Shown here in pieces: positions 13,976 to 33,663 of a DNA stretch of 53,852 bases. The position numbers and the translations under genes are program-made. The first letter of the stretch is position 1, and each line of letters begins with the position of its first letter. Source of the DNA: Deltaproteobacteria bacterium (GTDB lineage Bacteria > Desulfobacterota > Syntrophobacteria > BM002); contig JAJDNT010000056.1 of NCBI GenBank assembly GCA_022340515.1, positions 1 to 53,852 on the forward strand. Direction: 5' to 3'. The notes under the pieces are model-generated. The model did not search any database. It was given only the letters and a program-made list of their open reading frames with translations, and had not been told where the DNA came from.

Positions 13976-14034
13976 CCAGCCGCAATAACTTAAGAAATGA
14001 CAAGCGGTGTTGATGGTTTTCAAGGAGAGGAAAA

Positions 14035-17413: not shown

Positions 17414-18298
17414 ATGAAATGGGTTAGCTTGTCTGTTCGGTGCCCACCGGCCGTGCAAGAGGCAATAGCCAATTTCTTGGTGGAACAAACGGAGCGGGGT
17501 GTCCAAATCGAGGGACAATGGGTCACAGCCTACTGTTTCGAGGGAGAGGAAGCGCAGGTCTGCCACCAGCAGTTAACTCAATATTACCGAGATCTTCAGC
17601 AGTTGCATTTAAACTTGGCGGAACTAAAGGTGAGGCAAAAAGTTCTGCCAGGTGAAGATTGGTCTGAGACTTGGAAATCCTTCTTCAAGCCATTGACTAT
17701 AGGCAAAAACATTGTAATCAAGCCCACCTGGGAACCATATGAGCCAAAACCTGGGCAGGTGTTAATCGAGATCGATCCTGGGCGTGCCTTTGGAACCGGC
17801 AAGCATCCCAGCACGGCTCTTTGCCTTGAAATACTAGAGCTAGTTTTAGGTGAGTCCTCAAGTAAAAAAATGGGCTCAGTCACTTCTGTTTTGGATGTGG
17901 GCACAGGGAGCGGTATTTTAGGAATTGCTGCTGCAGGTTTAGGGGCTAGACGAGTTTTGGGCCTGGACCTTGATCCCGAAGCCCTAAAGGTGGCGGAGGA
18001 GAACCTGCGCAGGAATGGGGTGGAAGGGATTATGTCGGTAAGCAGTATACCTCTCCATCAACTGGGCGAGACTTACGATTTGGTTGTGGCTAACCTCACT
18101 GCCCCAGTCATAATTCAAATGGCAGCCAACCTGTCTCGCTCCGTTTCGCCCAAAGGTTGTTTGGTGCTTTCAGGCATATTGAGCCAGGAGATGGAAGAGG
18201 TTGCCAAATCCTTTCGGGCTCATTATTTTGAATGTATAGATAGCTGGGCAATGGAAGAGTGGCGAGCGCTTCTTTTAAGAAGGAAAAGCCGGGCATAG
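17414..18298 (+). CDS. prmA: ribosomal protein L11 methyltransferase
   Basis: 294 aa. Motifs are IEIDPGRAFGTGKHPST and VLDVGTGSGILGIAAA (SAM motif I). Confidence 0.9.
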   Translation: MKWVSLSVRCPPAVQEAIANFLVEQTERGVQIEGQWVTAYCFEGEEAQVCHQQLTQYYRDLQQLHLNLAELKVRQKVLPGEDWSETWKSFFKPLTIGKNIVIKPTWEPYEPKPGQVLIEIDPGRAFGTGKHPSTALCLEILELVLGESSSKKMGSVTSVLDVGTGSGILGIAAAGLGARRVLGLDLDPEALKVAEENLRRNGVEGIMSVSSIPLHQLGETYDLVVANLTAPVIIQMAANLSRSVSPKGCLVLSGILSQEMEEVAKSFRAHYFECIDSWAMEEWRALLLRRKSRA

Positions 18299-18384
18299 TT
18301 GATAAGATACTTCACCAACTAGGATACTACCCTTCGATGTCGATAAGTCATTTGGGCTTGCAGCCCGTCATTTATGGTCATTTC

Positions 18385-18431
18385 TTCGCGCTCGCTGCGC
18401 TCTGCTCAGGCCTGCAAGCTGGTTCCCAGTT
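18385..18431. repeat. fragment homologous to the interior of the 32598-32824 MITE-like element
   Basis: ttcgcgctcgctgcgctctgctcaggcctgcaagctggttcccagtt compared with ttcgccctcgctacgctccgctcagtcccgcaagcgggttcccagtt at 32742-32787. There are 6 mismatches in 47 nt, counted by eye. Confidence 0.7.
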
Positions 18432-18564
18432 AGCCTTCGGCGTGATTCATAGTCACACATCGGTTAATGACAATAAATGACAGCGAACCGTAATAACGGC
18501 GGAGTCGCCTGACGACTTTAGCCAAATAACCGCGTGGGGAATTTCTTTAGGTGAGGAATAAATC

Positions 18565-19803
18565 ATGACTACAGAAACTTCATCTCAAAAGGGTGAAAGG
18601 ATAACCCTCGAGGAGGACGGAACCTTAACCGTTCCTGAAAATCCACAGTTGATTTTCATTGAAGGGGATGGAATCGGCCCTGATATTTGGCGGACCGCCG
18701 TCAAAGTGTTTGACTCTGCAGTAGCAAAGGCATATGGGAGCCAAAGACGGGTTCAGTGGCAGGTGGGACTCGCTGGTGAAGTCGCTTTCGCCGAGACCGG
18801 CCAGTGGTTGCCGGAAGAGACATTGCAGTTGCTGCGGGAGAATATCGTGGGAATCAAAGGACCCCTTACTACTCCAGTGGGCGGTGGCATAAGGAGTTTG
18901 AATGTTACCCTCAGACAGGTCCTCGACCTGTATGCCTGTGTGCGACCGGTCCGTTACTACAAAGGTGTTCCTGCGCCCGTTCGCTTCCCGGAAAAGGTGG
19001 ACATGGTGGTTTTCCGAGAAAACACCGAAGACGTTTATGCCGGGATTGAGTGGCCAGCCGGTTCACCCGAGGCCAACCGGTTGGCCAGTTACATCAGAGA
19101 ACACCTGAATAAGGAGATCCGGCCGGAATCTGCCATTGGGATCAAGCCTATGAGTCGCTATGCAAGCCAGAGGCTGGTCAGGCGAGCCATTCGGTATGCA
19201 CTGGATCAAGGTTACCGAAGTGTCACCCTGGTGCACAAAGGAAACATCATGAAGTACACTGAAGGTGCCTTCCGCCAATGGGGTTACGAATTGGCAGCAG
19301 TTGAATTTCCAACTCAGACCGTCTCCGAAGCTGAAATTTACGAAAAACACGGGGGGCAGCAGCCACCAGACAAGGTGGTTATTAAAGATCGCATAGCGGA
19401 CATGATGTTCCAGCAGGCACTACTAAGGCCGGACGAGTACGACGTACTGGCAATGCCAAATTTGAACGGTGACTATCTTTCTGATGCCCTGGCAGCTCAG
19501 GTAGGAGGTTTAGGAATGGCACCGGGAGCCAACATTGGTGACGAGGCCGCCGTTTTCGAAGCCACACACGGCACGGCCCCCAAATATGCCGGCCAGGACA
19601 AGGTGAACCCTAGTTCCCTTATTCTGTCAGGTGCCATGATGTTTGATCACCTAGGGTGGAAAGAGGTGGGTGATCTAATTCGGACTTCCCTGGAATCGAC
19701 CATATTAGACAGGATTGTGACCTACGACCTGGCCAGGCAAATGGAAGGAGCTGAAGAGGTTAAATGCTCCGAATTCGGGGCTGCAATAGTGGAACATATG
19801 TAA
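18565..19803 (+). CDS. icd: NADP-dependent isocitrate dehydrogenase
   Basis: 412 aa with the homodimeric prokaryotic IDH pattern: [39 protein letters not shown] and [13 protein letters not shown]. Confidence 0.93.
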
Positions 19804-19925
19804 GATGCAGAGATTAACGTTCTGCGTTGCGCGACGGGAGGTGGGGTTGAAAAGAGACTTAGTGATCCTCGTCTCGCCAGTCTCGCCAGTCTCGCAATTA
19901 ATCTCGAGTTGGAATTGACTGAGTA

Positions 19926-20732
19926 ATGCAACCAAATAAATCATCCTTCAGCGCTAAAGTTCTTGAGATTAAGACTTTGTTTAGGCGGTTGCCCACCCTT
20001 GCTGCAAGGTTGTTAGAAGAAACACTTGTCTTGATCTATCCACCAATGTGCGCGGGTTGCTCTCGCACCCTCGATGCTGAAGAGTCGACTTTATTTTGCC
20101 CGGATTGTCTTACTGCTCTGGATCTAATCTCAGAACCGTATTGTCCCCTCTGCGGGATTCCTTTTGTGGCAGAAATCAGCAAAAGCCACCTTTGTGGTGA
20201 CTGTCTAGGGGGTGCGCACTCTTTTGACCGAGCGCGAGCAGCAGGATTCTACCAGGGACTCATTAGGGAGGTGATTCATCGCTTCAAGTACGGGGGGCAG
20301 ACCTTTCTGCTGAAGCCTTTGGCAAGAATGCTCGTTGTTCCGGCAAAGGACTTAATCCGTTTGCACAGAATAGATACTATTATGCCCGTTCCTCTCCATT
20401 ACAGACGTCTGCGCCAGAGAGGATTCAACCAGGCATCTTTGCTGGCGAGAACTTTAGGTCCACTTTTGCAAATACCCGTGGATTATTTCAGCCTAAAACG
20501 GACTCGCTGGACTGATCCGCAAATCGGTTTGAGCCGCAACCAGCGGGCAGCCAACGTCAAAGGCGCCTTCAGTCTAAAGTCTGCAGAAAAGATTGAGGGT
20601 AAAGGTATCCTCCTTCTAGACGATGTTCTCACCACAGGAGAAACGGTGAATCAGTGTGCAGGGGTGTTAAAAAAGGATGGAGGGGCCAGGGAGGTAGTGG
20701 TCCTGACTGTTGCACGAACCGTAGCGGGGTGA
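19926..20732 (+). CDS. comF: ComF family protein (phosphoribosyltransferase domain)
   Basis: 268 aa. N-terminal zinc-ribbon Cys pairs are CAGC..CPDC and CPLCG..CGDC. A C-terminal PRTase loop is ILLLDDVLTTGET. Confidence 0.85.
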   Translation: MQPNKSSFSAKVLEIKTLFRRLPTLAARLLEETLVLIYPPMCAGCSRTLDAEESTLFCPDCLTALDLISEPYCPLCGIPFVAEISKSHLCGDCLGGAHSFDRARAAGFYQGLIREVIHRFKYGGQTFLLKPLARMLVVPAKDLIRLHRIDTIMPVPLHYRRLRQRGFNQASLLARTLGPLLQIPVDYFSLKRTRWTDPQIGLSRNQRAANVKGAFSLKSAEKIEGKGILLLDDVLTTGETVNQCAGVLKKDGGAREVVVLTVARTVAG

Positions 20733-20803
20733 TAGCAGAGGGGTTCAGGTTAGAAGTGGGGTTTTTTTGAGGATAGATTTGAGATGTGGGATAGGATGAA
20801 GAA

Positions 20804-21331
20804 ATGACGGTAGATGCGGCGGAAAAGATTCTCGAGCGCAATAGCCTCAAGGCAAAAGTAGACTCTCTCCGGCAGTCAGGAAAATTAGTGATCTTTACCA
20901 ATGGCTGTTTCGACCTTCTGCACGCTGGACACGTGCGCTACCTGCAAGAGGCTCGCAAGCAGGGTGACTGTTTAGTAGTAGCAGTCAACAGTGACAGGTC
21001 GGTAGAGCAAATCAAAGGACCAGGACGTCCAATCATTCCAGATAATCAGCGCGCGGAGGTGCTGGCGGCACTTGGCTGTGTCGACTGGGTAACGATTTTC
21101 GATGAACCTGACCCCCTAGTTCTGATTAAGCTGCTCAAGCCGGATGTGCTGGTGAAGGGGAGCGATTGGCCGGAGAAGAAGATTATAGGGGCGAAAGAGG
21201 TTAAAGAGGCAGGAGGGAAGGTGTTAAGGATCCCTTTGGAAGCAGGGATCTCCACAAGTGCTATTTTCGAACGAATACGGTCTGCCTCAGGCAAGAAGAC
21301 CAAGGAGGAGCCGGAAAACCAGACTCTATGA
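20804..21331 (+). CDS. rfaE2: D-glycero-beta-D-manno-heptose 1-phosphate adenylyltransferase (stand-alone RfaE/HldE domain II)
   Basis: 175 aa. Cytidylyltransferase motifs are TNGCFDLLHAGHVRYL, VAVNSDRSV and LVKGSDW. No kinase domain is attached. Confidence 0.88.
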   Translation: MTVDAAEKILERNSLKAKVDSLRQSGKLVIFTNGCFDLLHAGHVRYLQEARKQGDCLVVAVNSDRSVEQIKGPGRPIIPDNQRAEVLAALGCVDWVTIFDEPDPLVLIKLLKPDVLVKGSDWPEKKIIGAKEVKEAGGKVLRIPLEAGISTSAIFERIRSASGKKTKEEPENQTL

Positions 21332-21385
21332 ACTAAGCACTAGGCACCGAGGAGTCAGCTGTCCGTGGTCTGTCGCCCGTCTCGC

Positions 21386-21452
21386 CTTACTCTATGCTCT
21401 ATGCCCTATGCTCTGTGCCCTTCCAAATCCGCAATCCGAGATCCAAAATTAC
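21386..21452. repeat. ctatgc heptamer array followed by an aaatcc word array; diverged copy of 4306-4365
   Basis: cttactctatgctctatgccctatgctctgtgcccttccaaatccgcaatccgagatccaaaattac aligns with cttactctatgccctctgctctaggctctatgctttcccaaatccaaaatctaaaattcc at 4306-4365. Confidence 0.8.
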
Positions 21453-22201
21453 TGGCGTGCCTGATCTTCCTCGCCCTTTCGGGCGAGTAAATGGGCTGCC
21501 GCTAGTGGACCGTAGCTGCTCTTCTTTTTAAGCTCCCACCAGGTAAACCCAGTTGAGCTCATTAAAATGTCGTATTCTTCGGCAGTTAGTGCACCGGCTA
21601 CGCACCAGCTCCAGGCGTCCTCGAATCCTTCAATAATTGGCGCAATTTCACCGACGGCAATGAGGTCGGCCAGTGAGAGAAAACCGCCCGGTTTAAGCAC
21701 TCGATTTATTTCTGTTAGGGCTTGTTCTTTATGGGGCAGCAGATTAAAGGACCCATTGGCCGTTACCAGGTCGATACAATCCGATCGCAAAGGAAGGTAT
21801 TCACCATCACCTGTCACCCAGTGGCACAAAGGATTTGAATTTGAATACCCTTTGGCCTGATAAAGCATTTCACTGGTGATGTCCATGCCGATCACCCTAC
21901 CAGGTGGCTGCATGGAAAGGGCCGCCACTTGGCTATCAATACCCACCCCGCAGCCTAAATCCAAAACAATCCAGTGCGGCCCCATCCTGATCTCTTCAAG
22001 AGGGTTTCCACAACCTGCAAATAATCTCCAGGCCTTCTTAGGAATCGGTAAAACTGAGGTGTGATATCCGAAGGCACGAGCCAGCTCTTCTCCGCAAGGG
22101 ATGGGCGCGGAACTTAGGTTGGCGGTGCCGTGAGCCGCAAGTTTCGCGTATAGTTGGCGAAGGTAAGCTTTGAGTTTTTGAGATGATTGCTTTTCTCTCA
22201 T
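21449..22201 (-). CDS. class I SAM-dependent methyltransferase, ArsM-like
   Basis: 250 aa. GCGNPL...VLDLGCGVGID...VIGMDIT, RVLKPGGF and WCVAGA resemble arsenite methyltransferases. The SNCVINL Cys position reads ANGSFNL. Confidence 0.75.
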   Translation of the reverse strand: MREKQSSQKLKAYLRQLYAKLAAHGTANLSSAPIPCGEELARAFGYHTSVLPIPKKAWRLFAGCGNPLEEIRMGPHWIVLDLGCGVGIDSQVAALSMQPPGRVIGMDITSEMLYQAKGYSNSNPLCHWVTGDGEYLPLRSDCIDLVTANGSFNLLPHKEQALTEINRVLKPGGFLSLADLIAVGEIAPIIEGFEDAWSWCVAGALTAEEYDILMSSTGFTWWELKKKSSYGPLAAAHLLARKGEEDQARQ

Positions 22202-22344
22202 GAAGTAATTTTCGTGCTTCGTTTAGTGGCGGGAGCATTATGACAGAGAGTGGCCAATGAAGCAATTGGATGAAAAGTTGGAAGTTTCTGGACAGAAAAG
22301 GGCTGCATTGCTATAATCCCACCGATTTTAAATAGGAGGAGTGT

Positions 22345-22770
22345 ATGAAGATATCAACTAGAGGTAGATACGGAACTCGAATGATGTTGGACTTGGCAGC
22401 TCACCATGATGAAGGTCCAACTCCTCTAAGAGAAATTGCCAAGCGTCAGGACCTTTCGGTTAAGTATTTGGAACAACTGATTATCCCGCTTAAGGCCGCT
22501 GGGTTTATTCGCAGTGTTCGTGGAGCTCGGGGAGGATACACCCTGGCTAGGAAACCTGAAAAAATCAGCATTGGACAAATTATAAAGACCCTCGAAGGGG
22601 GTATGACCCTAGTTGACTGTGTAGAAGATCCCAAGGGTTGTGAAAGAGAGAGTCAATGTCTTACCCGAGAAATCTGGCTTCGTATGAGTGAGCGGCTAAT
22701 GGAAGAGCTATCGTCTTTGAGTCTAAGAGACGTCTTGGATGGTAGGAAAATGCCTGTAGATGCTAAATAG
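22345..22770 (+). CDS. Rrf2 family transcriptional regulator (IscR/NsrR-like, probable Fe-S binding)
   Basis: 141 aa with an AGGAGGAG RBS. MKISTRGRYGTRMMLDLA is a winged helix-turn-helix. A Cys triad is present as CVEDPKGCERESQC. Confidence 0.9.
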   Translation: MKISTRGRYGTRMMLDLAAHHDEGPTPLREIAKRQDLSVKYLEQLIIPLKAAGFIRSVRGARGGYTLARKPEKISIGQIIKTLEGGMTLVDCVEDPKGCERESQCLTREIWLRMSERLMEELSSLSLRDVLDGRKMPVDAK

Positions 22771-22783
22771 GTGGAGGACGGTC

Positions 22784-23071
22784 ATGGCCATTCGGGTCCT
22801 GATAGAGAGAAAAATTGTACCGGAAAATCAACCGAGGTTAAACAACCTCCTCATGAAACTTAGGGGAAAGGCCATGCTTGCCAAAGGTTATATTTCCGGG
22901 GAAACATTGCGTTCTCTTGATGATCCCAATGAGTACTTAGTGATCAGTACGTGGAACAGTTTGAATGACTGGAAGAAGTGGGAATCGGATAAAGAACGGC
23001 ACGAGATTCAGAATGAGATTGACAGTCTGTTAAGGGCACCTTCCCTTCATCGGGTGTTTGTTTACGACTAA
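22784..23071 (+). CDS. antibiotic biosynthesis monooxygenase (ABM) domain protein
   Basis: Start moved to the ATG at 22784, after a GGAGGA RBS at 22773-22778. The 95-aa product reads MAIRVLIERKI...VISTWNSLNDWKKWESDKERHE, typical of the ABM/Dabb fold. Confidence 0.75.
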   Translation: MAIRVLIERKIVPENQPRLNNLLMKLRGKAMLAKGYISGETLRSLDDPNEYLVISTWNSLNDWKKWESDKERHEIQNEIDSLLRAPSLHRVFVYD

Positions 23072-23081
23072 TGCCCTGGCA

Positions 23082-23302
23082 TTGTCCGTTGTCTGTTGTC
23101 CGTGGTCAGTTGCATAAAAAGACAAGTGATTCTACATTTGAGCTAATTTCGGAGCACTGAGAGGACAAAAGATTTGCTATTATTTGTTTTTCCCCTTTGT
23201 GGTTTGCATGCCAGATCGTCCATTAAGCTCGACATTCTCCCTCGCAGCAGTTAGCTGAAGAAACAACGGACTACGGACCACGGACTACCGACGACGGACT
23301 CC
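23082..23302. repeat. long imperfect palindrome whose arms are gtccgtt/ggactac heptamer arrays
   Basis: The left arm is ttgtccgttgtctgttgtccgtggtcagttg (23082-23112). The right arm is caacggactacggaccacggactaccgacgacggactcc (23264-23302). The right arm overlaps the last codons of queH (...GVRRR*). Confidence 0.7.
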
Positions 23303-23824
23303 TAGATATCTTTCCTCTTCGCTGTAAATGCAGCCGCAGTATTCCTGTCTGAATAGTTTCATTTCTTTTGATTTTTCTATCCCCTCCTGCCAACCCTGGC
23401 GGAAATCTCGGTAGATGAAGGGTATCCCCCGGCGACGACCTATCTCCTCGCCTAGCTGAGAAATTAATTCGTGGTCTTGTTTCTTACTGTAAAGGAGCGT
23501 ACTGGTAAAACCGTCCATGCGGCTTTTTTTTGCCAACTGTGCAGCCGCATCGAGACGCAAGTTGTAACAAATTGGACAACGGTGCGACTCCCTAAATGCC
23601 ACTTGGCGCAAAAAACTCACAACGTCATATTCGTCCCGGTAAATCATTTCCAACCCAAGAATTTCTGCCAGTTGCTCCACGGCTTGCCGGCGGCGGCGGA
23701 ATTCCTGGTAAGGATGGATGTTGGGGTTATAGAATAAGCCGAAAACACGCGCTCCCTCACCCTGCAAGATCTCGAGAGGGTAGATGGCACATGGTCCACA
23801 GCACATGTGGAGAAGTATCTTCAA
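23285..23824 (-). CDS. queH: epoxyqueuosine reductase QueH (DUF208)
   Basis: 179 aa. TTG start after a GAGGTGG RBS. Motifs are HMCCGPCA, YNPNIHP, RCPICY and CGCIYS. Confidence 0.9.
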   Translation of the reverse strand: MKILLHMCCGPCAIYPLEILQGEGARVFGLFYNPNIHPYQEFRRRRQAVEQLAEILGLEMIYRDEYDVVSFLRQVAFRESHRCPICYNLRLDAAAQLAKKSRMDGFTSTLLYSKKQDHELISQLGEEIGRRRGIPFIYRDFRQGWQEGIEKSKEMKLFRQEYCGCIYSEEERYLGVRRR

Positions 23825-24091
23825 GAAACCACCTCGTCAGGAGTTGACAAACCGTTAGATGTTGTTAGTGGATAATTATAAGTGAAAGTAAAACAACGGG
23901 CAAACGTGTATGGAGTGTTGGAGTACTGGAGTGTTGGCAAAGGCAAAAAATCAGGTCTATTTTTGATAGTAGTTAGTCTTTAATACTGAATCAAACCATT
24001 ATTACACCACTCCATTACTTCAAATACCACAGCGCATACGACTAAATGGATTTATCTGCCAACCAGCCTACATTATCTGGATTCGTCTTCC

Positions 24092-25420
24092 TTACTTGAG
24101 TAGTTTTTGAGCCGCTATGTGTATAGGATCCCAGGTGCCGGAGAAGGGCGGGGCGTAGGCCAGGTCCACGTAGGCCAGTTCCTCTATAGATAAGCCGCCT
24201 GTCAAGGCGACGGCCAAAGCGTTGATTCTGGAGACCACCCCGTCGCCACCCACAGACTGAGCTCCAAGGAAGCGGCCGGTTTCAGTATCGGCGACTAATC
24301 GGATTTGAAGCTCGAGGCTGCCAGGGTAGCTATGTGCTTTAGAGACACCCTGGATGGTAGCGGAACTAGCTTTGAATCCAGCTTTCTCAGCTTCTTCCAA
24401 AGTCAAGCCAGTACTGGCAACTTCAAGATTAAATACTTTGAAACAAAGAGATCCGACTATTCCGGGAAATAAAATTTTCTGGCCACCGATGTTGGCACCG
24501 GCAATACGGCCTTGTTTGTTGGCGATATCTCCAAGGGGGGCATGCACCGGTTTGCGGCTAACGCGATGAAAGCACTCGCAACAATCTCCGGCTGCATAGA
24601 TAAATGGGTAGTTAGTTAACATGTTCTCGTTTACCGCAATGGCGCCGGTTGGACCTACTTCGATACCGGCTTCTGAGGCAAGAGAAACCTCTGGAACGAC
24701 ACCTATGCCGATTAACACTAGATCAGACTCTAAAGTGCCATTACTGGTGTGGACCATGATGGTTCCAGAGCTGGTTGGCTCAAAGCCCTCCAAGAGTGTG
24801 CTAGCCATAAATTTTGCGCCATTCGATTCGAGTTCTATGAGTATCTGCTCAGCAAAGTCTTGGCCGAGTCTCCTCATGGGAAGATCTTTTCGATAAACAA
24901 CGGTGGTCTCTAGTCCTAGTCGTCTAAAAGCTTCGCAAACTTCAAGGGAAATTAGCCCAGCTCCAATTATCACAGCACCTCTGGCATTCCTTTGCTTGAT
25001 GAAGCTTTTTATGCGAATAGCGTCAGCAACGTTCCGTAAAAAAAAGATGCCCTCAAGATCTTGCCCAGGAACTGAAGGCAAGCGAGGAGTAGCACCGGTA
25101 GCCACGGTTAGGTAATCGAAGGGAAGGGTTTCACCTGTGGTTAGTTCCAGCACCTTTTTCTCTGGTCGTATGTTGATCACTTTGGTATGGAGTTTTACCT
25201 CTATGCCAGACTTGGCAAAGGCTTCAGGTGTTCGGGCAATTAACTTGGCCTCATCCCTGATTACATCGCCGATGTAATAGGGTGTCGGTCAGGATGAGAA
25301 AGAGACGTGCTCCCCACCCTCAAGTATGGTTACCTCTAGATCTGGATTGACCCGCTTAGCTTTAGCGGCCGCACTAGGCCCGCCAGCGCCACCACCTACC
25401 ACAACCAATCTCTTTTTCAT
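24092..25420 (-). CDS. FAD-dependent pyridine nucleotide-disulfide oxidoreductase (NADH oxidase / CoA-disulfide reductase family), predicted selenoprotein with in-frame TGA at 25291..25289
   Basis: The track ORF (24092-25180) starts at an internal Met. The same frame continues upstream to the ATG at 25420, which has a GGAG RBS 7 nt upstream. That region encodes MKKRLVVVGGGAGGPSAAAKAKRVNPDLEVTILEGGEHVSFSS-TGA-PTPYYIGDVIRD.... The GxGxxG FAD motif is present. The TGA occupies the position of the redox-active Cys in the family motif SF(A/S)xCG(L)PYYIG. A hairpin follows. Confidence 0.8.
25260..25278 (-). promoter_or_regulatory. SECIS-like stem-loop downstream of the in-frame UGA
   Basis: The mRNA reads UGA CCGACACCCU AUUACAUC-GGC-GAUGUAAU. 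A perfect 8-bp stem starts 11 nt after the UGA and has a G-rich apical loop. This geometry fits bacterial SECIS elements. Confidence 0.65.
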
Positions 25421-25719
25421 GGTGCATCTCCAGGTATAACAACAGCACTTTTATTACTCCATGTTTTAAATCCGAATATCTAATATCGAAATCCGAAATG
25501 GTTCGACGAGCCGTTCGACAGGCTCACGGTCCTGAGCAGAGTCGAAGGGCAAATTCAAATTTTCAAGATCCAAATGACCAAAATTTAGGGTACTCGCTTA
25601 TGCTGTTTTCGTTTTGAACATTGGAGAATTAGGATTTTGAATTTGTTTAGTGCTTCGTGCTTAGGATTCCGAATTTTCTCCTTTTGCTCTGGTCGGTGTT
25701 TCTTGCCACAATGCTCCGC

Positions 25720-26619
25720 TTACTGCTTGATTTGTTGAACCAACCACTGGACAATGATCTCCTCTAATTCCTTTTCATGCTGGCGGAAACGGTGGTTTCC
25801 ACCTACCACCTTTCTCACCGTAACTTGGCTTCCGGTTCCGGCGTTGTTCCTGAGTTGATCTGCCACTTGGGGGTCCGCCAACCGATCAGCCAGACCATGG
25901 ACTATAAGAACTGGTTTGCTAAGACGACCAATGTTCATAAATGGGTCGGAGAAGGTTTGTGGGCCTCTGAGGCTAACCACATGGTTAGCCGTGTAGAGAG
26001 TCTTGCCAAGGGGGCCGAGGTCAATGACCATCCAAGTGTCACCTTTGCCTTCGGTCTTCAACTCCTGGGCCCGATGGAGAAGTTGAGTCGCAGCTTCCAG
26101 GCCGAAGGTTCTCACATTCCATTGGAAAAGGTTTCCTGGGGGAGCAGTGAGAATGAGTCCGGCGATCCTGGGGTCCTCTGTCTCTGCCAGATAAAAGAGT
26201 ACTCGGTTGGTTCCCATGCTGTGGCCGTAGAGGAAAAGAGCTTCATAGCCGTGTCGAGCCATTTCATCCACCCCTGAGGTGATGTCTGGCAGGTTCTCTT
26301 CAAACAAGTTTTTCTTGGGGCCCAAGTCGTGATCCCGCATGTTAAGAGCCAACGTAGCGAAACCTCGTCGAGATAGGGCTTGGGGAAGAAAGGCCATAAT
26401 GCCGGAATAGAAGTTTCCCCCATATCCGTGAACCATAACAACTCCGGCCTTGGCCCGCTCCGGGTAAGGTTCACGCAGGACGGAGTTCAGTCTCACCCCA
26501 TCAGTGGTCTGCAGTTCTATCAGTTCGGTCCGAACTCCTTGCTCAGTCTTGGGGCAGGATGAGCAAACTAGAATGGCGACCAAAAAGGTGCAAAAGATTA
26601 ATAGTTTGTTGGTTCGCAT
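25720..26619 (-). CDS. alpha/beta hydrolase, secreted or lipoprotein
   Basis: 299 aa. The N-terminal signal has a Cys (LVAILVCSSCP). The nucleophile elbow is GHSMG and the HG oxyanion motif is VMVHGYGG. Confidence 0.8.
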   Translation of the reverse strand: MRTNKLLIFCTFLVAILVCSSCPKTEQGVRTELIELQTTDGVRLNSVLREPYPERAKAGVVMVHGYGGNFYSGIMAFLPQALSRRGFATLALNMRDHDLGPKKNLFEENLPDITSGVDEMARHGYEALFLYGHSMGTNRVLFYLAETEDPRIAGLILTAPPGNLFQWNVRTFGLEAATQLLHRAQELKTEGKGDTWMVIDLGPLGKTLYTANHVVSLRGPQTFSDPFMNIGRLSKPVLIVHGLADRLADPQVADQLRNNAGTGSQVTVRKVVGGNHRFRQHEKELEEIIVQWLVQQIKQ

Positions 26620-26753
26620 TATCGACTGGCCTTCAACATAGTGGCGGTTAGAATGTGCCAGACTATGACTAGCGAAGGAAAAGCGGAAAGGTTGTATAAT
26701 TTCTCTCTAGAAGAGCAATATCGAGCCCTTAAACGTTTATAAGCAAAAAATAC

Positions 26754-26984
26754 TTATAAATTATGGCCGCCAAGGAGCCAGGCAGGGTCCAAGGAGAATG
26801 TCTCTCTTAAGACCTCGATGTTTTCCGAAGAGAGTTTCTTTTTCCCTGTTTCCATCTCTTTAAGGTCTTTTTCACTTATGCCTAGCCTTTGAGCCACCAC
26901 GGCTCGAGTCAGTCCACGAACCTCCCTGAAATTCTGCAGACGTTCTCCAACCCTTTTGTAATCGAGATCTGTTTCCATAACCAT
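26754..26984 (-). CDS. helix-turn-helix XRE-family transcriptional regulator
   Basis: 76 aa. GERLQNFREVRGLTRAVVAQRLGISEKDLKEME is a Cro/C1-type HTH. Confidence 0.75.
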   Translation of the reverse strand: MVMETDLDYKRVGERLQNFREVRGLTRAVVAQRLGISEKDLKEMETGKKKLSSENIEVLRETFSLDPAWLLGGHNL

Positions 26985-27094
26985 CTATCCTTTCTCACCA
27001 ATCCCAACCAGTAATAAGCTTTTTGCTCCCAGAATATAGGAAGATTTCAATTTAACATACCCGGAAGATCTCTGCAAAATTCTTTCATGGTTAG

Positions 27095-27173
27095 CCCGGA
27101 TAATTAATAAATCGGCTGCTCCGACTGTGAAACTGGGAACCCGCTTGCGACACCAATTCATGAATCATCCGGG
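27095..27173. mobile_element. short (79-bp) internally deleted copy of the MITE-like element at 32598-32824, in opposite orientation
   Basis: The ends are cccggataattaataaatcgg (27095-27115) and ccaattcatgaatcatccggg (27153-27173), forming imperfect inverted repeats. The interior ctgctccgactgtgaaactgggaacccgcttgcg matches the reverse complement of 32769-32803. The remainder matches 32598-32625. Confidence 0.7.
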
Positions 27174-27258
27174 CTAGGGGTGTTCGTAGTCCGTTGCGCA
27201 GCAGGCATAGGGCATGGGGTTCAAATTTTGAAATTCGAATTTGGAACTTCGAATTATT

Positions 27259-27439
27259 AAATCCGCAATCCGCAATCCGAAATCGGAAATTACCGAAATG
27301 CTTAGTGCCTAGTGTCCATGGTGCTCTGCGTCTTTAACTCTTCGGGCTCTGTGGCTCAAAAGGTGGAATGGGTATTGCTTGCCCCTTTTCGATTGTCTGT
27401 AGGTAATGAGAAATGCGAAATGACAAATGAGAAATGAGA
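27259..27439. repeat. tandem word arrays (aatccgc heptamers, gcttagtgcctagtg, aatgaga heptamers) upstream of the guanylyltransferase gene
   Basis: aaatccgcaatccgcaatccgaaatcggaaattaccgaaatg at 27259-27300. gcttagtgcctagtg at ~27300-27315. aatgagaaatgcgaaatgacaaatgagaaatgaga at 27405-27439. Confidence 0.75.
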
Positions 27440-27503
27440 CCGTATACTGGTTCAACCCCTTCGCTGAAGATAAAGCTGAAATACAAAAGGAGGTGTGAAG
27501 GCG

Positions 27504-28574
27504 ATGTACGCGGTAATCATGGCTGGAGGCAAGGGCACCAGATTCTGGCCTAGGAGCAGAGAAAAGAGACCCAAGCAACTTCTCAATATTGTGGGGCGAC
27601 GTTCAATGCTGCAACAGACCATAGCGCGGATTGCTAATTTGCTCCCGGTGGAAAATGTTCTAGTGGTGGCTGGTGAAGCTCATGGAGAGGAGTTGCGCCG
27701 GCAACTGGCTGAGCTGCCAGCTGAGAATGTTTTCCTGGAACCAGTTGGGCGAAACACAGCCGCCTGTATAGGTTTAGCGGCTCTACTAGTGCAAAATCGT
27801 GACCCAAGTGCAGTAATGGTAGTATTGCCGGCGGACCACCTGATTGCTGACGAGGATCTGTTCCTTTCCACCTTAAGGGCTGCGGTAGCAATGGCTCGAA
27901 AACAGCCAGCCCTGATTACTTTGGGTATTCGCCCCAGATCACCTGAGACCGGCTATGGATATGTCGAGGCAGGGGACCAGGTGCATAAAATACAAGAGCA
28001 CAGATTCTATAAAGTTAGTTCCTTTCATGAGAAACCTGACCTTGAACGGGCCAAACAATACCTGGAAAAGGGTAATTTTTTCTGGAACAGTGGCATGTTT
28101 GTTTGGCAAGCCAATGCTATTTTGGCGGAAATGAAAAATTACTTGCCCGGCCTCTACAACGATCTCCATAAACTGAAGCCATTTTTGGATACAGGTGGCC
28201 TGGATGAGAAAATAAACCAGATCTATCCAGAATTGGAGTCCATTTCCATCGACTACGGGATAATGGAAAAGGCTAATAATGTTCTGATGATACCTGCTGA
28301 TTTCGGCTGGAATGACTTGGGATCCTGGGCCTCCATGGCACAAATCTGGCCCAGGGATGATCAAGACAATGCCCACCTGGGTGAAATTGTGGCCATGGAA
28401 GCCCGGGGCAATGTTGTCTTCTCTCAGCAGAAACTTTGTGTCCTTCTTGGGGTGGCTGACCTAATTGTGGTGGATACCGAAGACGCACTGCTGGTTTGTC
28501 CTGTGAATAGAGCCCAGGATATTGGCAAGATTCTTGACGCAATGAAACAGCGCGGTATGGAAGAGTATTTATAG
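27504..28574 (+). CDS. mannose-1-phosphate guanylyltransferase (NTP-transferase domain only)
   Basis: The ATG at 27504 lies 10 nt after the GGAGG at 27489-27493; the track's GTG at 27495 is too close to the RBS. Motifs are MYAVIMAGGKGTRFWPRSR, PADH and GYGY. Confidence 0.88.
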   Translation: MYAVIMAGGKGTRFWPRSREKRPKQLLNIVGRRSMLQQTIARIANLLPVENVLVVAGEAHGEELRRQLAELPAENVFLEPVGRNTAACIGLAALLVQNRDPSAVMVVLPADHLIADEDLFLSTLRAAVAMARKQPALITLGIRPRSPETGYGYVEAGDQVHKIQEHRFYKVSSFHEKPDLERAKQYLEKGNFFWNSGMFVWQANAILAEMKNYLPGLYNDLHKLKPFLDTGGLDEKINQIYPELESISIDYGIMEKANNVLMIPADFGWNDLGSWASMAQIWPRDDQDNAHLGEIVAMEARGNVVFSQQKLCVLLGVADLIVVDTEDALLVCPVNRAQDIGKILDAMKQRGMEEYL

Positions 28575-28577
28575 ATC

Positions 28578-29726
28578 TTAATTGGCAGGGGATTTTGGCT
28601 CTAAGAGGCCAGATCTGTCCTCGTCTAGGCGGCGCAAACCTTCCATTAGCAAATGCATGGTCTCCTTTTGCACCTGTCGTTTAATGGAGAGAGTCTCGGC
28701 AGACTGAAACTGGAACTGCCCCTCCTGCCAGGTAAGTAGCTGGTAAAAGGCTTGTTCGCCGAGAAGATCTCCGAGGGTTACCTGGTAAATGAAGCCTCTC
28801 TCGAAAGCAATTTTAGCCTCACCCCTCTTGCCAGAGATCACTAATACGCCGGTTCTACCGTTGAGTGCGAGGGTTTGAACGAGTTCAGGAATACTGAAGG
28901 TCTCAATACTTCCAAGCATCCCTTTGTCCAGCGTTTCCGCCATCCTTGTGCTGGTCTGCTTCAATCGCTGGGTAAGTAGTTTAGTGAAATAAATGTTCAG
29001 ATAGGGATTGTCTCGGACAAGCTGATCAAAGTCTTTTTTGCTTATCTTTAGCAAGGTAACTGGGGTTTTTGCCCTGATGGTAGCCGAGATGGGTTCGCCA
29101 GAAATCAATGACATTTCACCGAAACACTCTCCTTCCGGCAGATTGGCAATCACTTCTTCCCGTATCTGCCCTCCCTGACGTAACACCGACACTTCTCCCT
29201 TTATAATTACATAGAGAAACTCGCCAACGTCACCCTGCTGAATGATGTCGTTTCCTGTATTGATCTGTTGGAGTTGAAGAAGGGGAATGATTTTCTCCAG
29301 GGAAGCCTCCGGAAGGGGTTCAAAAATAGGCATGGATTGAAGCTTTGACAGATCAAGTTTCAGGTTCGCAAGTTGCTTCAGTGTCTCCGGGGTGATGGAT
29401 ACGCGAGAGCGTCTTTTGATAACATTGAAAATGACACGGCCAAGATTGCAGCAACAACGCAAGCTGCCAAGCTCTTCGCCAATACCCAGGGTGGCGAAAG
29501 CCACTCCCCGAGACAGGGCCAGAATGTAAGGCTGGCACTGATTAAGAGCTGAAATACAGACTTTGTTGGTCTCCTCCAGGACAATTTGCGGATAGTCAAT
29601 AGTGATTTGGTCGCCCTTTGCATAAGTAGGACAATCGAACACTTCCTCGGCGATCATAGTGACTCTAAGCAAAGCCATAAGTGCCAATCTCACAGCAAAA
29701 CACAGGAGCATCCAAATGATAGGCAA
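28578..29726 (-). CDS. cyclic nucleotide-binding protein with C-terminal DUF4388 domain and Cys-containing N-terminal domain
   Basis: 382 aa. The cNMP-binding core is GEFLYVIIKGEVSV...FGEMSLISGEPISATIRA. The C-terminus is GSIETFSIPELVQTLALNGRTGVLVI...QEGQFQF (DUF4388-like). The N-terminus is FDCPTYAKGDQITIDYP...LRCCCNLGRVIFNV. The start codon is uncertain; 29657 is an alternative. Confidence 0.75.
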   Translation of the reverse strand: MPIIWMLLCFAVRLALMALLRVTMIAEEVFDCPTYAKGDQITIDYPQIVLEETNKVCISALNQCQPYILALSRGVAFATLGIGEELGSLRCCCNLGRVIFNVIKRRSRVSITPETLKQLANLKLDLSKLQSMPIFEPLPEASLEKIIPLLQLQQINTGNDIIQQGDVGEFLYVIIKGEVSVLRQGGQIREEVIANLPEGECFGEMSLISGEPISATIRAKTPVTLLKISKKDFDQLVRDNPYLNIYFTKLLTQRLKQTSTRMAETLDKGMLGSIETFSIPELVQTLALNGRTGVLVISGKRGEAKIAFERGFIYQVTLGDLLGEQAFYQLLTWQEGQFQFQSAETLSIKRQVQKETMHLLMEGLRRLDEDRSGLLEPKSPAN

Positions 29727-29990
29727 AAAATTATAGCAGACTCCCTAATACCAAGAAAGCTCTTGTACTTTGCCGTTGGTTTATTATGGTGTAACATAGT
29801 CAGTCGACAATAAGGTGACCATTTCAGTCTTGTTGAGCATTACTCAAGTATGCTTGCAAGGTCTTTGCCAGAAAGAGGGTTTTTGTTTTTTAATTTATTA
29901 CCAGCCATAAGCGGAAGACCCAAGGAGTCGAGGGATTCCTCTGGGTGGCGAGAATAGCCAAAACAATCTTGGTGCAGCGGGGAGCGGAGC

Positions 29991-30560
29991 ATGAAGGTAC
30001 TTAGTATCCTCGGCAGTCCGAGGAGAGGCGGAAATACTGAAATTCTTTTAGATGAGGCGCTGCAGGGTGCGAGTGACCATGGCGGTTCCTGTGAGAAAGT
30101 CATACTGCGAGACCTTAAAATCACACCATGCTTGGAGATCTATAAATGCGCTAAGGATGGAGTATGTGCCATTAAAGACGATATGCAAGATCTTTTTCCA
30201 AAAATCGAGCAAGCCCAGAGGTTGATCATAGCTTCACCCATATTTTTTTACAGTGTCTCAGGCTGGACTAAGGCAATGATTGACAGATGTCAATCTTTAT
30301 GGGCAAAGAAGTATATTTTAAAGTTGCCGGTCTCCAACGTTCCCGACCGCAGGGGAGCATTCATCTCGGTAGCAGCTACCCGGGGAAAAAAACTTTTTGA
30401 TGGAGTGAGACTTACGATAAAATATTTTTTTGATGCCATCGATGTAAGTTACAGCGATGAACTTTTGGTGCGGGGAGTAGATGATAAGGGTGAGATAAGG
30501 AAGAGAGAGGAAGCTCTACAACAAGCTTATGAGTTAGGTAGAAGGCTGGTAGTAGATTAA
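29991..30560 (+). CDS. flavodoxin-fold NAD(P)H-dependent FMN reductase / iron-sulfur flavoprotein-like
   Basis: 189 aa. MKVLSILGSPRRGGNTE is a flavodoxin-like FMN site. A Cys cluster reads CLEIYKCAKDGVC. The ASPIFFYSVSG motif is present. Confidence 0.8.
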   Translation: MKVLSILGSPRRGGNTEILLDEALQGASDHGGSCEKVILRDLKITPCLEIYKCAKDGVCAIKDDMQDLFPKIEQAQRLIIASPIFFYSVSGWTKAMIDRCQSLWAKKYILKLPVSNVPDRRGAFISVAATRGKKLFDGVRLTIKYFFDAIDVSYSDELLVRGVDDKGEIRKREEALQQAYELGRRLVVD

Positions 30561-30660
30561 AAATTTGGGCCTGGGGTCAGGGCACTGAAGGTTTTTAATT
30601 TCGAAATTTTAAGCCATTGCCCTATGCTCCATGCCCTTAGCCAAGGAAGGAGGTATCTCA

Positions 30661-30936
30661 ATGCTATTTATGGCCGTTTTTACTTATGAACCTAATGATA
30701 GAGATCGGGTGATTGAACGGAGGATGAAAAATCCTCGAAGCCCGAAGGGCGTAGAAATCAAAGGTGAGTGGTTTGATGTCTCGGGTCATCGAGTTTTTTG
30801 TCTTTTTGAGGCAGAGGACGCAGCCCACATGGCTGCTTCTTTTTACGATTGGACTGATCTTGGGGTGGCGGAGTTGATTCCGGTTGTTAATACTGAATTA
30901 GCCATTAAACTGCTGAAAAGGACTAGTCGCAAATAG
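30661..30936 (+). CDS. small conserved hypothetical protein (DUF3303-like)
   Basis: The ATG at 30661 follows AAGGAAGGAGG. The 91-aa product reads MLFMAVFTYEPNDRDRVIERR...WFDVSGHRVFCLFEAEDA. The family assignment is from memory only. Confidence 0.55.
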   Translation: MLFMAVFTYEPNDRDRVIERRMKNPRSPKGVEIKGEWFDVSGHRVFCLFEAEDAAHMAASFYDWTDLGVAELIPVVNTELAIKLLKRTSRK

Positions 30937-31046
30937 GATAAACGACAATCTGTCTCCCAAGCTAACTTGACACCAAAGTTGGCCATAGGCTAACCTAATG
31001 CCGTTTCAAGCAAGACCCCACCAAGATATTGCCAGGAGATTCGCCG

Positions 31047-32378
31047 ATGAATCGAATCGGTCGCAGAAGATGGCTGAAGTGGTTTATAGTGGCGGCCATT
31101 ATTTTTAGTGGCTGTGGTCCTCCCATAACGACCAGATTGGTAACCATTGACCTGGAAAAACCTCCAGAGGCGGAGATACAAAACATAAAGACTATTGGGG
31201 TCATGCCTTTCAGCAGTCCCGCCTCGGATGTAGGGCGCAAAATGGCTGTGGATATTGCCAGGGCACTGGACAGCGGCGTACTGGGGCTAGGACCATTTGC
31301 GGCGCGGACTATTAGAGCCGCCGAAGATTTCAAGCCTACGGCTGACTCAATTAGAAAACTCGGGCAAAAGGAGCAGGTAGACGCACTAATCCTAGGTGAG
31401 ATTAGCCAGTTTTCTGTGCAAACCTCAAGAGCTAATCAGCCCATGCTATCAGTGCCAGAATTCGGCTCTGGTGACCATTCTGAATATGAATGGGTGGGCA
31501 TTCTCGAGGAAGAGTCAATAAAAGATACCTACTACTACAGGATCTTACCTCGCCAGGATCCAAGCACAGTTGAAGTCTCCATTACCAAACTGGTCTCCAC
31601 CCTAACTGCACAGGTGAGGCTTGTGGAAACTAAGAGCGGTAATACCCTTTGGGAGCAAGAAATCACAAGGAAGTCTGAAAGAATCAAGTTTCCTGGCCCC
31701 GAGGCGGACACGGAAGCAGAAATTCACAGACTGTTGATTTCCATAGCCAATGAGGTGGCTGCTCGGTTAAAGCCGCAGGAATACAGGGTCCAGCGTTTAA
31801 TTAAAGCCCCCCACTTTGGAATGGTCCCGGTGGCTGCGAAATGGGTGCGACGGGGAATTCAGGCAGCGGCAGAAAACGATTGGCTGAGAGCAGAGAAGTT
31901 GTTTCTTAAGGCAATGGAAGAGGCCCCAGATGAATGCACTGTAAATGGAAACCTGGGGGTTGCCTACGAGATGAATGGCCGCTTATTAGAGGCTGTAGCT
32001 GCTTATGAGAGGGCGCATCGCTGCCGGCCAAAAGATCCCACCTACCGCTATTATAGCGATGATTTGCAGAGAGCTTTTGCCCCGGATTTGAAGCAAGAGG
32101 ATCTGCCGAGTACAGTTGTGGGAGTGCGTGGGGACGGAACTATTTATCTCAGTAGATGTGGAAGGGGCGGCCATCCACCAGGTCAGCGATTTACTATCTA
32201 TCGAACGGAGGTCGAGCGCTACCAGAGGGGGGCAAGGATAAAGAATTTTAAGGAAACTGATCTTGCTCGCGGCAGAATAGTTGAAGTGGATGAAAAAATG
32301 TCTTTGGGCCAACTGTTGCTCTTCAATCCTGTGCTCAATGTTCGCAGAGGTGACCTGGTTCGCTTTGAAGCAAAGTAA
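31047..32378 (+). CDS. lipoprotein with C-terminal TPR-like region
   Basis: The ATG at 31047 gives MNRIGRRRWLKWFIVAAIIFSGC, a lipobox-like signal. The GVMPFSS segment resembles CsgG/LpoB-type lipoprotein domains. A TPR-like stretch reads AEKLFLKAMEEAPDECTVNGNLGVAYEMNGRLLEAVAAYERA. Confidence 0.7.
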   Translation: MNRIGRRRWLKWFIVAAIIFSGCGPPITTRLVTIDLEKPPEAEIQNIKTIGVMPFSSPASDVGRKMAVDIARALDSGVLGLGPFAARTIRAAEDFKPTADSIRKLGQKEQVDALILGEISQFSVQTSRANQPMLSVPEFGSGDHSEYEWVGILEEESIKDTYYYRILPRQDPSTVEVSITKLVSTLTAQVRLVETKSGNTLWEQEITRKSERIKFPGPEADTEAEIHRLLISIANEVAARLKPQEYRVQRLIKAPHFGMVPVAAKWVRRGIQAAAENDWLRAEKLFLKAMEEAPDECTVNGNLGVAYEMNGRLLEAVAAYERAHRCRPKDPTYRYYSDDLQRAFAPDLKQEDLPSTVVGVRGDGTIYLSRCGRGGHPPGQRFTIYRTEVERYQRGARIKNFKETDLARGRIVEVDEKMSLGQLLLFNPVLNVRRGDLVRFEAK

Positions 32379-32597: not shown

Positions 32598-32824
32598 CCC
32601 GGATAGTTCACGAATTGGTGTGGCGAGACCGTGGAGGTGAGGGTGCAACCGGGCATCCGCAGGGACTCGAATCCGAGGCGTACTTGAACAGTACGTCGCA
32701 GGGTTCGAGTCCAGAGGACGTCCGGAAGGACGTTCATATTATTCGCCCTCGCTACGCTCCGCTCAGTCCCGCAAGCGGGTTCCCAGTTTTACAGTCGGAG
32801 CAGCCGATTGATTAATTGTCCGGG
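32598..32824. mobile_element. MITE-like non-autonomous element (227 bp) with 21-bp imperfect terminal inverted repeats and a highly structured interior
   Basis: The left end is cccggatagttcacgaattgg (32598-32618). The right end is ccgattgattaattgtccggg (32804-32824), whose reverse complement cccggacaattaatcaatcgg matches the left end at 15 of 21 positions. The interior has a ~22-bp composite hairpin (32663-32712) and a GGAA-loop hairpin (32716-32735). A short copy lies at 27095-27173 and a fragment at 18385-18431. Confidence 0.7.
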
Positions 32825-33136
32825 CTTTGGCTGAGAGGCTAATTGGCGCTGCTTATCTCCCACCATAAAAAAGGCCCCAACAAACGTTATCCCATCTGGT
32901 TATTCCCGAACCACCGTTCTCCCCCCGGCATCACCATGACTGCCGGAATTTGCGCCATCTGGGCGGGTTACTAGGTCCGTCCGGTAGGCCTAGCAAAATT
33001 AATTTCCTAAAGCCAACCGTGATGGTCTACGCTCATTGGGACCACTTTCAATTTAACATGACTATAGTTTTTTGCCAAGGGTATTTTTCACACTATTATC
33101 TTTAGCTTTCCGAACCATCCGGAGTAATGCAAAGAT

Positions 33137-33216
33137 GGAGTACTGGAGTATTGTCAAGAAGCTAAAATTCTCAAAAAATCATTGTTTTTCTCACTACTCC
33201 AATACTCCAGCACTCC
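33137..33216. repeat. hairpin with ggagtact/actccag word-repeat arms
   Basis: ggagtactggagtattg (33137-33153) pairs with caatactccagcactcc (33200-33216) at 16 of 17 positions, with a 46-nt loop. The same word family occurs at 23912-23937 (tggagtgttggagtactggagtgttgg) and 24005-24030. Confidence 0.7.
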
Positions 33217-33528
33217 AAAACTCCAACTGCAGGTGTGCAAGCATCATTTGATGCTGAATTACTGGAAGGAGAAGGTTACTTAGGAACCTGATCCAGAGCA
33301 CGAAAAAACAGATAGGCAGTCGCTACTATTCTCCCTTACCTTAATGAGTTCGAATCTAGTAAAGAGGTGACAGAGAGTTAAAGAATTCGGTTGCAAGGAT
33401 GAGAATTTGAGATGAAAACTAATCAGCTATTCTAACCTACCATTTTCGCAAAAGATTTTGCCCTTGATCGACCGCCAAATCAGGTGTAAAGTACCAAAAT
33501 CGCCTCAGTGAATATGTTACGCATCATA

Positions 33529-33620
33529 ACCAAAGAGCACACAAAGAGCACAGAGTATTAGGTTGTATTGATGAGGGCTAACTGTCAATTGTGTCTCAGT
33601 GAACTCTCTGGCCTCTGTGG
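33529..33620. repeat. imperfect hairpin of cacaaagag-type words upstream of the K+ channel gene
   Basis: The arms are ccaaagagcacacaaagagcacagag (33529-33555) and ctcagtgaactctctggcctctgtgg (33594-33620). The word family is the same as at 437-512, 10025-10043 and 13776/13950. Confidence 0.55.
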
Positions 33621-33663
33621 TTAAAATCGTCTATTGCAAGCAGGGAATATTTGATCAAGCCTA

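Follow-up and report, generated by a model that had tools for sequence, protein, structure and literature searches.

NADH oxidase has reportedly been on the lists of prokaryotic selenoproteins since a survey of 2004, as related by later papers that cite it. An NADH oxidase family is listed as a selenoprotein family in several surveys (PMC1794560 Tables 1, 3; PMC9312934; PMC13188914). Its sole example in 2006 came from Geobacter metallireducens (PMC1794560 Tables 1, 3, 4), one selenocysteine (Sec) sequence of the family has been found in the metagenome of gutless-worm symbionts (PMC1976440), and the family was not attributed in 2006 to either Syntrophobacter fumaroxidans or Syntrophus aciditrophicus (PMC1794560). 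In the summary given by PMC13188914, the Sec motif of the family is UGxP. The present work addresses a gene located at 25420..24092, on the minus strand, of the contig JAJDNT010000056.1 from a bacterium of the Syntrophobacteria (assembly GCA_022340515.1, labelled Deltaproteobacteria bacterium). The stretch of DNA analysed, called the window below, is the entire contig (53,852 nucleotides, i.e. 53.8 kb). This gene very probably encodes a 442-residue FAD/NAD(P)H flavoprotein of the NADH oxidase (Nox)/NADH peroxidase (Npx)/CoA-disulfide reductase (CoADR) group, in which the active-site Cys would be replaced by Sec. An initial annotation, made from the letters of the window, had stated that Sec-containing NADH-oxidase-like proteins figure in selenoproteome surveys, and the listings cited above confirm it (PMC1794560, PMC9312934, PMC13188914).

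The frame, which is directly observed, runs on the minus strand (as do all the features of this gene given below) from an ATG at 25420 to a TAA at 24094..24092, and the sole internal stop among its 442 codons is a TGA at 25291..25289, i.e. codon 44. The mechanical list of open reading frames (ORFs) contains just 24092..25180 (362 aa, GTG start). The initial annotation had proposed that the same frame stays open beyond this ORF save for one TGA, and that the upstream part carries a ribosome-binding site, the ATG at 25420 and the start of an FAD-binding domain; the minus-strand reading agrees with both proposals. Indeed, the ATG is preceded, with a spacing of 6 nt, by a ribosome-binding site GGAGA (25431..25427) that is unchanged across the six closest upstream regions aligned. 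The N-terminus, MKKRLVVVGGGAGGPSAA, includes a dinucleotide-binding GxGxxG segment. As indicated by their translation and by their conservation among orthologues, codons 1–43 (25420..25292) correspond to an FAD-binding beta-alpha-beta segment (GGGAGG) that is dropped by gene callers. The full-length coding sequence (442 codons plus TAA) is of the type with one redox residue found in the Nox/Npx/CoADR group, as supported by the frame, the Pfam matches, the alignment with a solved Nox and the orthologues.

The claim that ORF callers truncate this gene is borne out by the public databases. In a collection of 5.8 billion proteins, the best 120 matches are all N-terminally truncated (120/120) and cover 71–88% of the full protein, with called lengths of 315–399 aa among the relatives. 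The public call of the contig itself (P0001, 24092..25240) is 100% identical over a coverage of 86%; it uses an ATT at 25240 as start and encodes 382 aa, without the FAD-binding N-terminus and the active site. Records from metagenome-assembled genomes at NCBI are named 'FAD-dependent oxidoreductase', those from JGI 'NADPH-dependent 2,4-dienoyl-CoA reductase/sulfur reductase-like enzyme' and, for some of them, 'CoA-dependent NAD(P)H sulfur oxidoreductase'. Because the public call and the 120 best relatives are devoid of the FAD-binding N-terminus and of the catalytic residue, functional or structural inference from these records is wrong.

All public annotations treat the TGA as a true stop, which would imply that the real product has 362–382 aa and that the upstream 43 codons either are a separate small ORF or are untranslated. 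In this genome, TGA serves as a normal stop: it terminates 6 of the 36 confident genes of the window, and many of the orthologues end in TGA, which also excludes a genome-wide reassignment of this codon. However, the short product would have neither the GxGxxG FAD-binding fold nor the catalytic residue, and the called starts disagree with each other (ATT at 25240, GTG at 25180), as do the lengths called in the relatives. Furthermore, one Pfam alignment and one PDB alignment cross the TGA, and the orthologues preserve the sequence, the frame and the length of the 43 upstream codons. Termination at codon 44 thus appears extremely unlikely.

The comparison with described enzymes supports the reading of codon 44 as the redox-active position. 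For the domain searches, a Cys was placed at this codon. A single match to Pfam Pyr_redox_2 (residues 4–288) spans the TGA position and is accompanied by matches to Pyr_redox (149–225) and Pyr_redox_dim (328–429), with scores of 185, 66 and 61 bits that all exceed the gathering scores. The combination of Pyr_redox_2 and Pyr_redox_dim, an N-terminal GxGxxG and a length of ~440 aa is that of the Nox/Npx/CoADR group, and the UGA codon sits at the position of the lone nucleophilic Cys, near residue 42–44 after S-x-x-x. The best solved relative is the NADH oxidase of Thermus thermophilus (6ruz, E 1e-107, residues 1–439). The Pyrococcus CoA-disulfide reductases (4fx9, 5l1n and 3kd9, ~1e-85; E 5e-86 for the 4fx9 group) form a second solved group, and further solved matches include NoxA-3, CoADR-rhodanese fusions, persulfide reductases, NADH peroxidase and the Staphylococcus CoADR. 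The alignment of the putative Sec with Cys is directly observed: the Cys of ..SYGACGLPY.. (6ruz) and that of ..SHAPCGIPY.. (4fx9) are both aligned with codon 44. The initial annotation was therefore right in placing the TGA at the nucleophilic Cys. It was mistaken in giving SF(A/S)xCGxPYYIG as a motif of the family, since the solved Cys relatives carry the sequences just mentioned and PYYIGDVI is specific to the clade.

The protein has the same length as 6ruz, the same GGxAGG N-terminus (GGGAGG in the window, GGVAGG in 6ruz; compare GGGAAG in 4fx9) and, at the TGA position, 6ruz has its Cys. The two proteins differ by the active-site segment (Cys-Gly-Leu-Pro in 6ruz, Sec-Pro-Thr-Pro in the window), by the FAD motif (GDVAE instead of GDCCE) and by YVLSGEI in place of YYIGDVI, the 6ruz gene being free of the hairpin constraint described below. 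In Npx and Nox enzymes, a catalytic His occupies the N-terminal spot equivalent to GGGAGG. The Pyrococcus horikoshii enzymes 4fx9, 5l1n and 3kd9, known as CoA-disulfide reductase/polysulfide reductase, use a one-Cys mechanism that proceeds via a mixed disulfide with CoA; these are Cys enzymes, whereas the window protein would use Sec and stays below the cut-off of the CoADR equivalog. The FAD motif GDCCE of the window protein includes two Cys, residues 280–281 (24581-24583 and 24578-24580), of which Cys280 is found in 80/80 and Cys281 in 68/80 members of the clade. As GDC is also present in the solved Cys-type relatives 6pfz, 3cgb and 3iwa (6ruz and 4fx9 both having GDVAE), Cys280 is a family feature near the FAD and was rejected as a resolving partner of Sec44; the second Cys, Cys281, may be clade-specific.

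The conservation of the TGA, also directly observed, was established by a scan of one genome per species, which identified 572 relatives; the 80 best loci among them were retained. All these loci (44–89% identity) belong to metagenome-assembled genomes labelled Syntrophobacteria, Syntrophobacterales, Syntrophales, Smithella, Deltaproteobacteria or Acidobacteriota, and 79 of them cover the site of codon 44. The codon is TGA in 75/79 orthologous loci and TGT in the remaining 4/79, so that the alignment to Cys-containing orthologues proposed as a check by the initial annotation places Cys at the very same codon, with no shifted position. This TGA or TGT is codon 44 after the ATG in 76/79 loci; for L008, L077 and L078, the start chosen by script (TTG in L077) makes it codon 46. 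The residue that follows Sec or Cys is Pro in 77/80 sequences, L, D or E in 3/80 and Gly in 0/80, and the +3 residue is Pro in 80/80. The 43 codons located upstream are also kept as protein, G9 and G14 being found in 80/80 sequences and A12, S16, A18 and A19 in 78–79/80. Both halves are translated in one frame; therefore, the UGA must be decoded.

The same data bear on the possibility that the TGA results from a nonsense mutation or from an assembly or sequencing error, the gene being a pseudogene or having a true TGC or TGT codon. The window is a single contig, and TGA differs by only one base from TGT or TGC, which encode the Cys forms present among 4/79 orthologues in the case of TGT. Against this, 75 independent assemblies with identities of 44–89% all have TGA at this codon, the frame is intact on both sides with its N-terminal 43 codons kept as protein, and the synonymous conservation of the hairpin described below is tied to the presence of the TGA; an error or a pseudogene is thus vanishingly improbable. 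In a neighbour-joining tree, the TGT forms occupy three separate positions within the TGA clade (L014 with L030, L056 alone and L072 alone), as would be expected if Sec is ancestral and if at least three independent Sec-to-Cys reversions occurred.

In bacteria, the decoding of UGA as Sec depends on a SECIS element. According to the consensus model that Zhang and Gladyshev published in 2005, of which the legend of Fig. 2 of PMC13188914 gives a summary, this hairpin has an apical loop of 3–9 nt, a stem of 4–16 bp, a G in one of the first two loop positions, a UGA-to-loop distance of 16–37 nt and a minimum free energy (MFE) of at most -7.5 kcal/mol. In the window, the hairpin AUUACAUC-GGC-GAUGUAAU (25278..25260, minus strand) starts 10 nt past the UGA and coincides with the codons Y-Y-I-G-D-V-I; its stem (25278..25271 paired with 25267..25260) and its loop GGC (25270..25268) are supported by folding, conservation and RNAalifold. 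The perfect 8-bp hairpin with a GGC loop claimed by the initial annotation at 25260-25278 is thus found there, at 10 nt from the UGA and not at the eleven that it gave. Its suggestion that the G-rich loop fits the geometry of bacterial SECIS elements is also upheld, since the loop (3 nt, GGN, starting with GG), the stem (8 bp) and the distance from UGA to loop (18 nt) all fall within the model of PMC13188914.

Like other bacterial SECIS elements, for example that of Escherichia coli fdhF, the hairpin is located in the coding region just past the UGA and has a small loop with G first at a distance within 16–37 nt. It differs from the fdhF type by its very short GGN triloop and by its AU-rich stem of -5.2 kcal/mol, and from bacterial SECIS elements by a sequence that is fully invariant in the clade despite protein identities as low as 44%. 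The fdhF element has a bulged U, which the hairpin of the window lacks. Extended folds of the window suggest a possible lower stem that would enclose the UGA (25299..25249, UCUCAUCCU at 25299..25291 paired with AGGGAUGAG at 25257..25249, -16.4 kcal/mol) or, alternatively, an extension by CCCU/AGGG with a bulged C. The 8-bp hairpin is the only structure kept in the RNAalifold consensus; a conserved lower stem was rejected, the extended folds of the window being absent from this consensus and optional at best.

The conservation of the hairpin and its relaxation in the Cys forms are both directly observed. The sequence TATTACATCGGNGATGTAAT is identical, save for the N, in 76/76 TGA forms (the window and 75 loci), and the third positions of five synonymous stem codons (TAT, TAC, ATC, GAT and GTA) have zero entropy in these forms, compared with 1.54 bits in the loop, 1.13 just past the stem and 0.7–1.9 at all the other third positions from -15 to +62. 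GTA represents just 10.6% of the Val codons elsewhere in the same genes, and the median per-gene expectation for the combination of the five codons is 0.005. The four TGT forms keep YYIGDVI, yet display 6 changes at 20 synonymous stem sites: one pair is broken in every form, a G-U wobble occurs in addition in two forms, and the change in L014 and L030 is GTA to GTC. Such a pattern would be expected from a hairpin that serves only the decoding of UGA and that decays once Sec has been replaced by Cys.

The UGA could also be read through as another amino acid, either Cys carried by tRNA(Sec) at low selenium or near-cognate Trp, with the hairpin acting as a mere stimulator of read-through. Although the sequence alone is compatible with such a reading, the hairpin fits the geometry of SelB-type SECIS elements, including a loop that starts with GG (PMC13188914), and reversions always lead to Cys codons, as for Sec/Cys pairs. 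Moreover, the cultured relatives of the lineage use Sec (PMC1794560): Syntrophobacter fumaroxidans has 31–39 selenoproteins and Syntrophus aciditrophicus 19, which ranks them among the most selenoprotein-rich bacteria (PMC1794560, PMC9312934). As for an occasional insertion of Cys through the Sec pathway, it would amount to a by-product of this mechanism and not to a separate one. Read-through as another amino acid is thus very unlikely.

By the standard bacterial mechanism, the UGA of codon 44 (25291..25289) would be decoded as Sec, at the redox-active Cys position indicated by the 6ruz and 4fx9 alignments and by the codons of the orthologues, by a Sec-tRNA(Sec) delivered by SelB with GTP. 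SelB would be recruited by AUUACAUC-GGN-GAUGUAAU, the hairpin lying 10 nt and its loop 18 nt past the UGA, and the codons of Y-Y-I-G-D-V-I would be fixed because this hairpin is inside the coding sequence. As in the Cys homologues, NAD(P)H would reduce the FAD, which would reduce the oxidised Sec44, present either as a selenenylsulfide formed with CoA, another small thiol or a persulfide, or as a selenenic acid. From the sequence, we thus infer the insertion of selenium, the binding of SelB and the kind of substrate.

Several observations weigh against the proposed Sec enzyme or against a precise substrate. There is no selA, selB, selC or selD among the annotated ORFs of the 53.8-kb window, no tRNA at all in this window, and no second selenoprotein gene according to a six-frame scan of the window for ORF pairs joined by one TGA. 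The core hairpin alone, which is AU-rich, has an energy of -5.2 kcal/mol, above the published limit of -7.5; the 66-nt region folds with a z of -1.55, 14 of 200 shuffles folding at least as well; and the invariant stem shows no compensatory covariation, the support coming from synonymous-site conservation. The amino-acid invariance of PYYIGDVI is partly due to ascertainment, the peptide patterns of the scan having included this motif. The UGxP motif listed for the known family differs from the U-P-T-P of the window and from the U-P-x-P found in 76/79 relatives. On the substrate side, the score against the CoADR equivalog TIGR03385 is 403.1 bits for a cut-off of 578.8, and that against the H2O-forming NADH oxidase model NF046103 is 211.7 bits for a cut-off of 600.

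As to the energy, the MFE of the region from UGA to +45 is -16.4 kcal/mol in the window, non-conserved pairs included, and its median among the orthologues is -9.9, for a model limit of -7.5; this limit is reached only when non-conserved flanking pairs are counted. The covariation test is uninformative because the stem never varies, so that synonymous sites and the comparison with the Cys forms were used instead; the TGA and the synonymous sites are unbiased by the scan patterns, which were degenerate. Globally, the comparative conservation is decisive in favour of the predicted Sec, thermodynamics being weak alone. With regard to the machinery, no tRNA-Sec was found in the flanks of loci L001–L060, and no Rfam family reaches its gathering score anywhere in the window.

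The highest NCBIfam scores are those of the CoADR equivalogs TIGR03385 and NF007123, the latter with 376.3 bits for a cut-off of 458, and no selenoprotein-specific model figures in the listed 25 out of 53 models that match. Since the best-scoring families stay below their cut-offs, a CoADR function would be a resemblance, short of an assignment. Nevertheless, the profile is more likely nearer to the CoADR/polysulfide-reductase type than to the classical Nox/Npx type, as suggested by the ranking of the PDB and NCBIfam matches, by the GGGAGG N-terminus and by the source names among the relatives.

The neighbourhood of the gene differs between lineages. In that of the window, the upstream neighbour encodes an alpha/beta hydrolase, and the downstream neighbours encode QueH, an ABM-domain protein and an Rrf2 regulator. 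A region of 13 kb (18092-31420) is colinear with the closed chromosome CP070689.1 and with CAVQGX010000042.1 at ~85% nucleotide identity, and with the closed CP070735.1 at ~70% (comparison set L001, L006, L003 and L004). This colinearity assigns the contig to the uncultured, Syntrophobacteria-like lineage of the two closed chromosomes, both labelled 'Deltaproteobacteria bacterium'. In 36–40 Syntrophales loci (L010–L076), the genes of a thioredoxin reductase, lgt and the Sec gene follow each other on one strand with a median gap of ~27 nt, the upstream thioredoxin-disulfide reductase matching TIGR01292 with 358 bits. A homologue of the C-GCAxxG-C-C family (seleno)proteins is encoded just upstream in 18 other loci, and TerC/Alx downstream of the Sec gene in 14 loci; none of these three contexts was found in the lineage of the window. 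Such neighbourhoods are loosely consistent with roles in thiol redox or oxidative stress and prove nothing.

The selenoprotein family listed as NADH oxidase belongs to the same superfamily (TIGR03385/COG0446-related) and was found in a deltaproteobacterial host; it likewise has Sec in place of a single redox-active Cys near residue 43, and was likewise identified by Cys/Sec pairing and a downstream SECIS. It was counted once in the genomes of 2006 (PMC1794560 Table 1), versus at least 75 species-level genomes here, the carriers belonging to Syntrophobacteria, Syntrophales and Acidobacteriota. The gene is most aptly regarded as a new member of this known family, and possibly as a sub-clade of it, the type example WP_011365774.1 being compared by its listed motif only. 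Alternatively, and with rather low probability, the U-P-x-P proteins would be a separate, uncatalogued Sec-dependent subfamily that would be near-universal in uncultured Syntrophobacteria and Syntrophales, with an activity unlike that of classical CoADR or Nox and with one frozen SECIS. Under this less likely alternative, the enzyme might, for instance, depend on selenium, use NAD(P)H to reduce persulfide/polysulfide or O2/H2O2, and be linked to the thioredoxin system, a link suggested by the order trxB-lgt-Sec gene in the 36–40 loci or by the C-GCAxxG-C-C protein encoded upstream in the 18 loci. By the preferred assignment to the known family, this is a real yet ordinary selenoprotein gene that is systematically mis-annotated.

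Around the Sec gene, a scan for promoters and terminators returned counts equal to the shuffled expectation. The sequence TTTCGGATTTCGATATTAGATATTCGGATTTA (25467-25498, minus strand), located ~50–80 nt upstream of the ATG at 25420, comprises two copies of TTCGGATTT around GATATT-A-GATATT; it is near-identical upstream of the L006 and L002 orthologues and partial in L003 and L004, and may be an operator or a promoter element. The gene of an Rrf2-family regulator (22345-22770) lies near TTTCGGATTTCGATATTAGATATTCGGATTTA. An imperfect tandem run, GCACAGAG-CATAGGG-CATAGAG-CATAGAG, is found at 21390-21418 (minus strand), just 3' of an ArsM-like gene, and is preceded by CGGATT-type motifs that resemble those found upstream of the Sec gene.

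Other candidates of the window for selenoproteins or Sec machinery were rejected. The other ORF pairs joined by a TGA are gene overlaps or antisense shadows, and the single candidate examined among them, 13903-14571, has a non-homologous upstream part. ORFs of the nuo region that have the sizes of SelA, SelB and SelD (637, 475 and 334 aa) are NuoL, NuoN and NuoH. The ArsM-like neighbour (21449-22201, minus strand), which ends with TAA and has no open extension, encodes a SAM methyltransferase whose best NCBIfam matches include the N-terminal halves of models of double-selenoprotein fusions (ArsM_AhpD_UU, MTase_UXPK_star and ArsM_DUF2284_UU); this copy is a predicted Sec-free, stand-alone form. 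At 37747-41466 (minus strand), a 1239-aa fusion associates a GltD-like NAD(P)H flavoprotein (NF009454, 654 bits) with a molybdopterin domain similar to that of formate dehydrogenase alpha. The latter matches only positions 1–525 of the 672 of the model, the C-terminal domain being missing without continuation in any frame, and its lack of any in-frame TGA indicates that it is not a Sec form. Finally, a gap of ~1 kb (~32650-33660), without any ORF of more than 66 aa on either strand and without Rfam match, separates a TPR lipoprotein-like gene from a potassium-channel gene.

The understanding of Sec decoding is unchanged by this gene, which marks an uncultured Syntrophobacteria lineage as a Sec user and indicates that a family counted once in 2006 is common in syntrophic Deltaproteobacteria. 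It also provides a clean natural case of synonymous sites frozen by a coding-region SECIS, a constraint that decays in each of at least three independent reversions from Sec to Cys. Among the by-products, the most useful are a corrected model of the gene, the breadth of the family in syntrophic lineages and the synonymous constraint driven by the SECIS.

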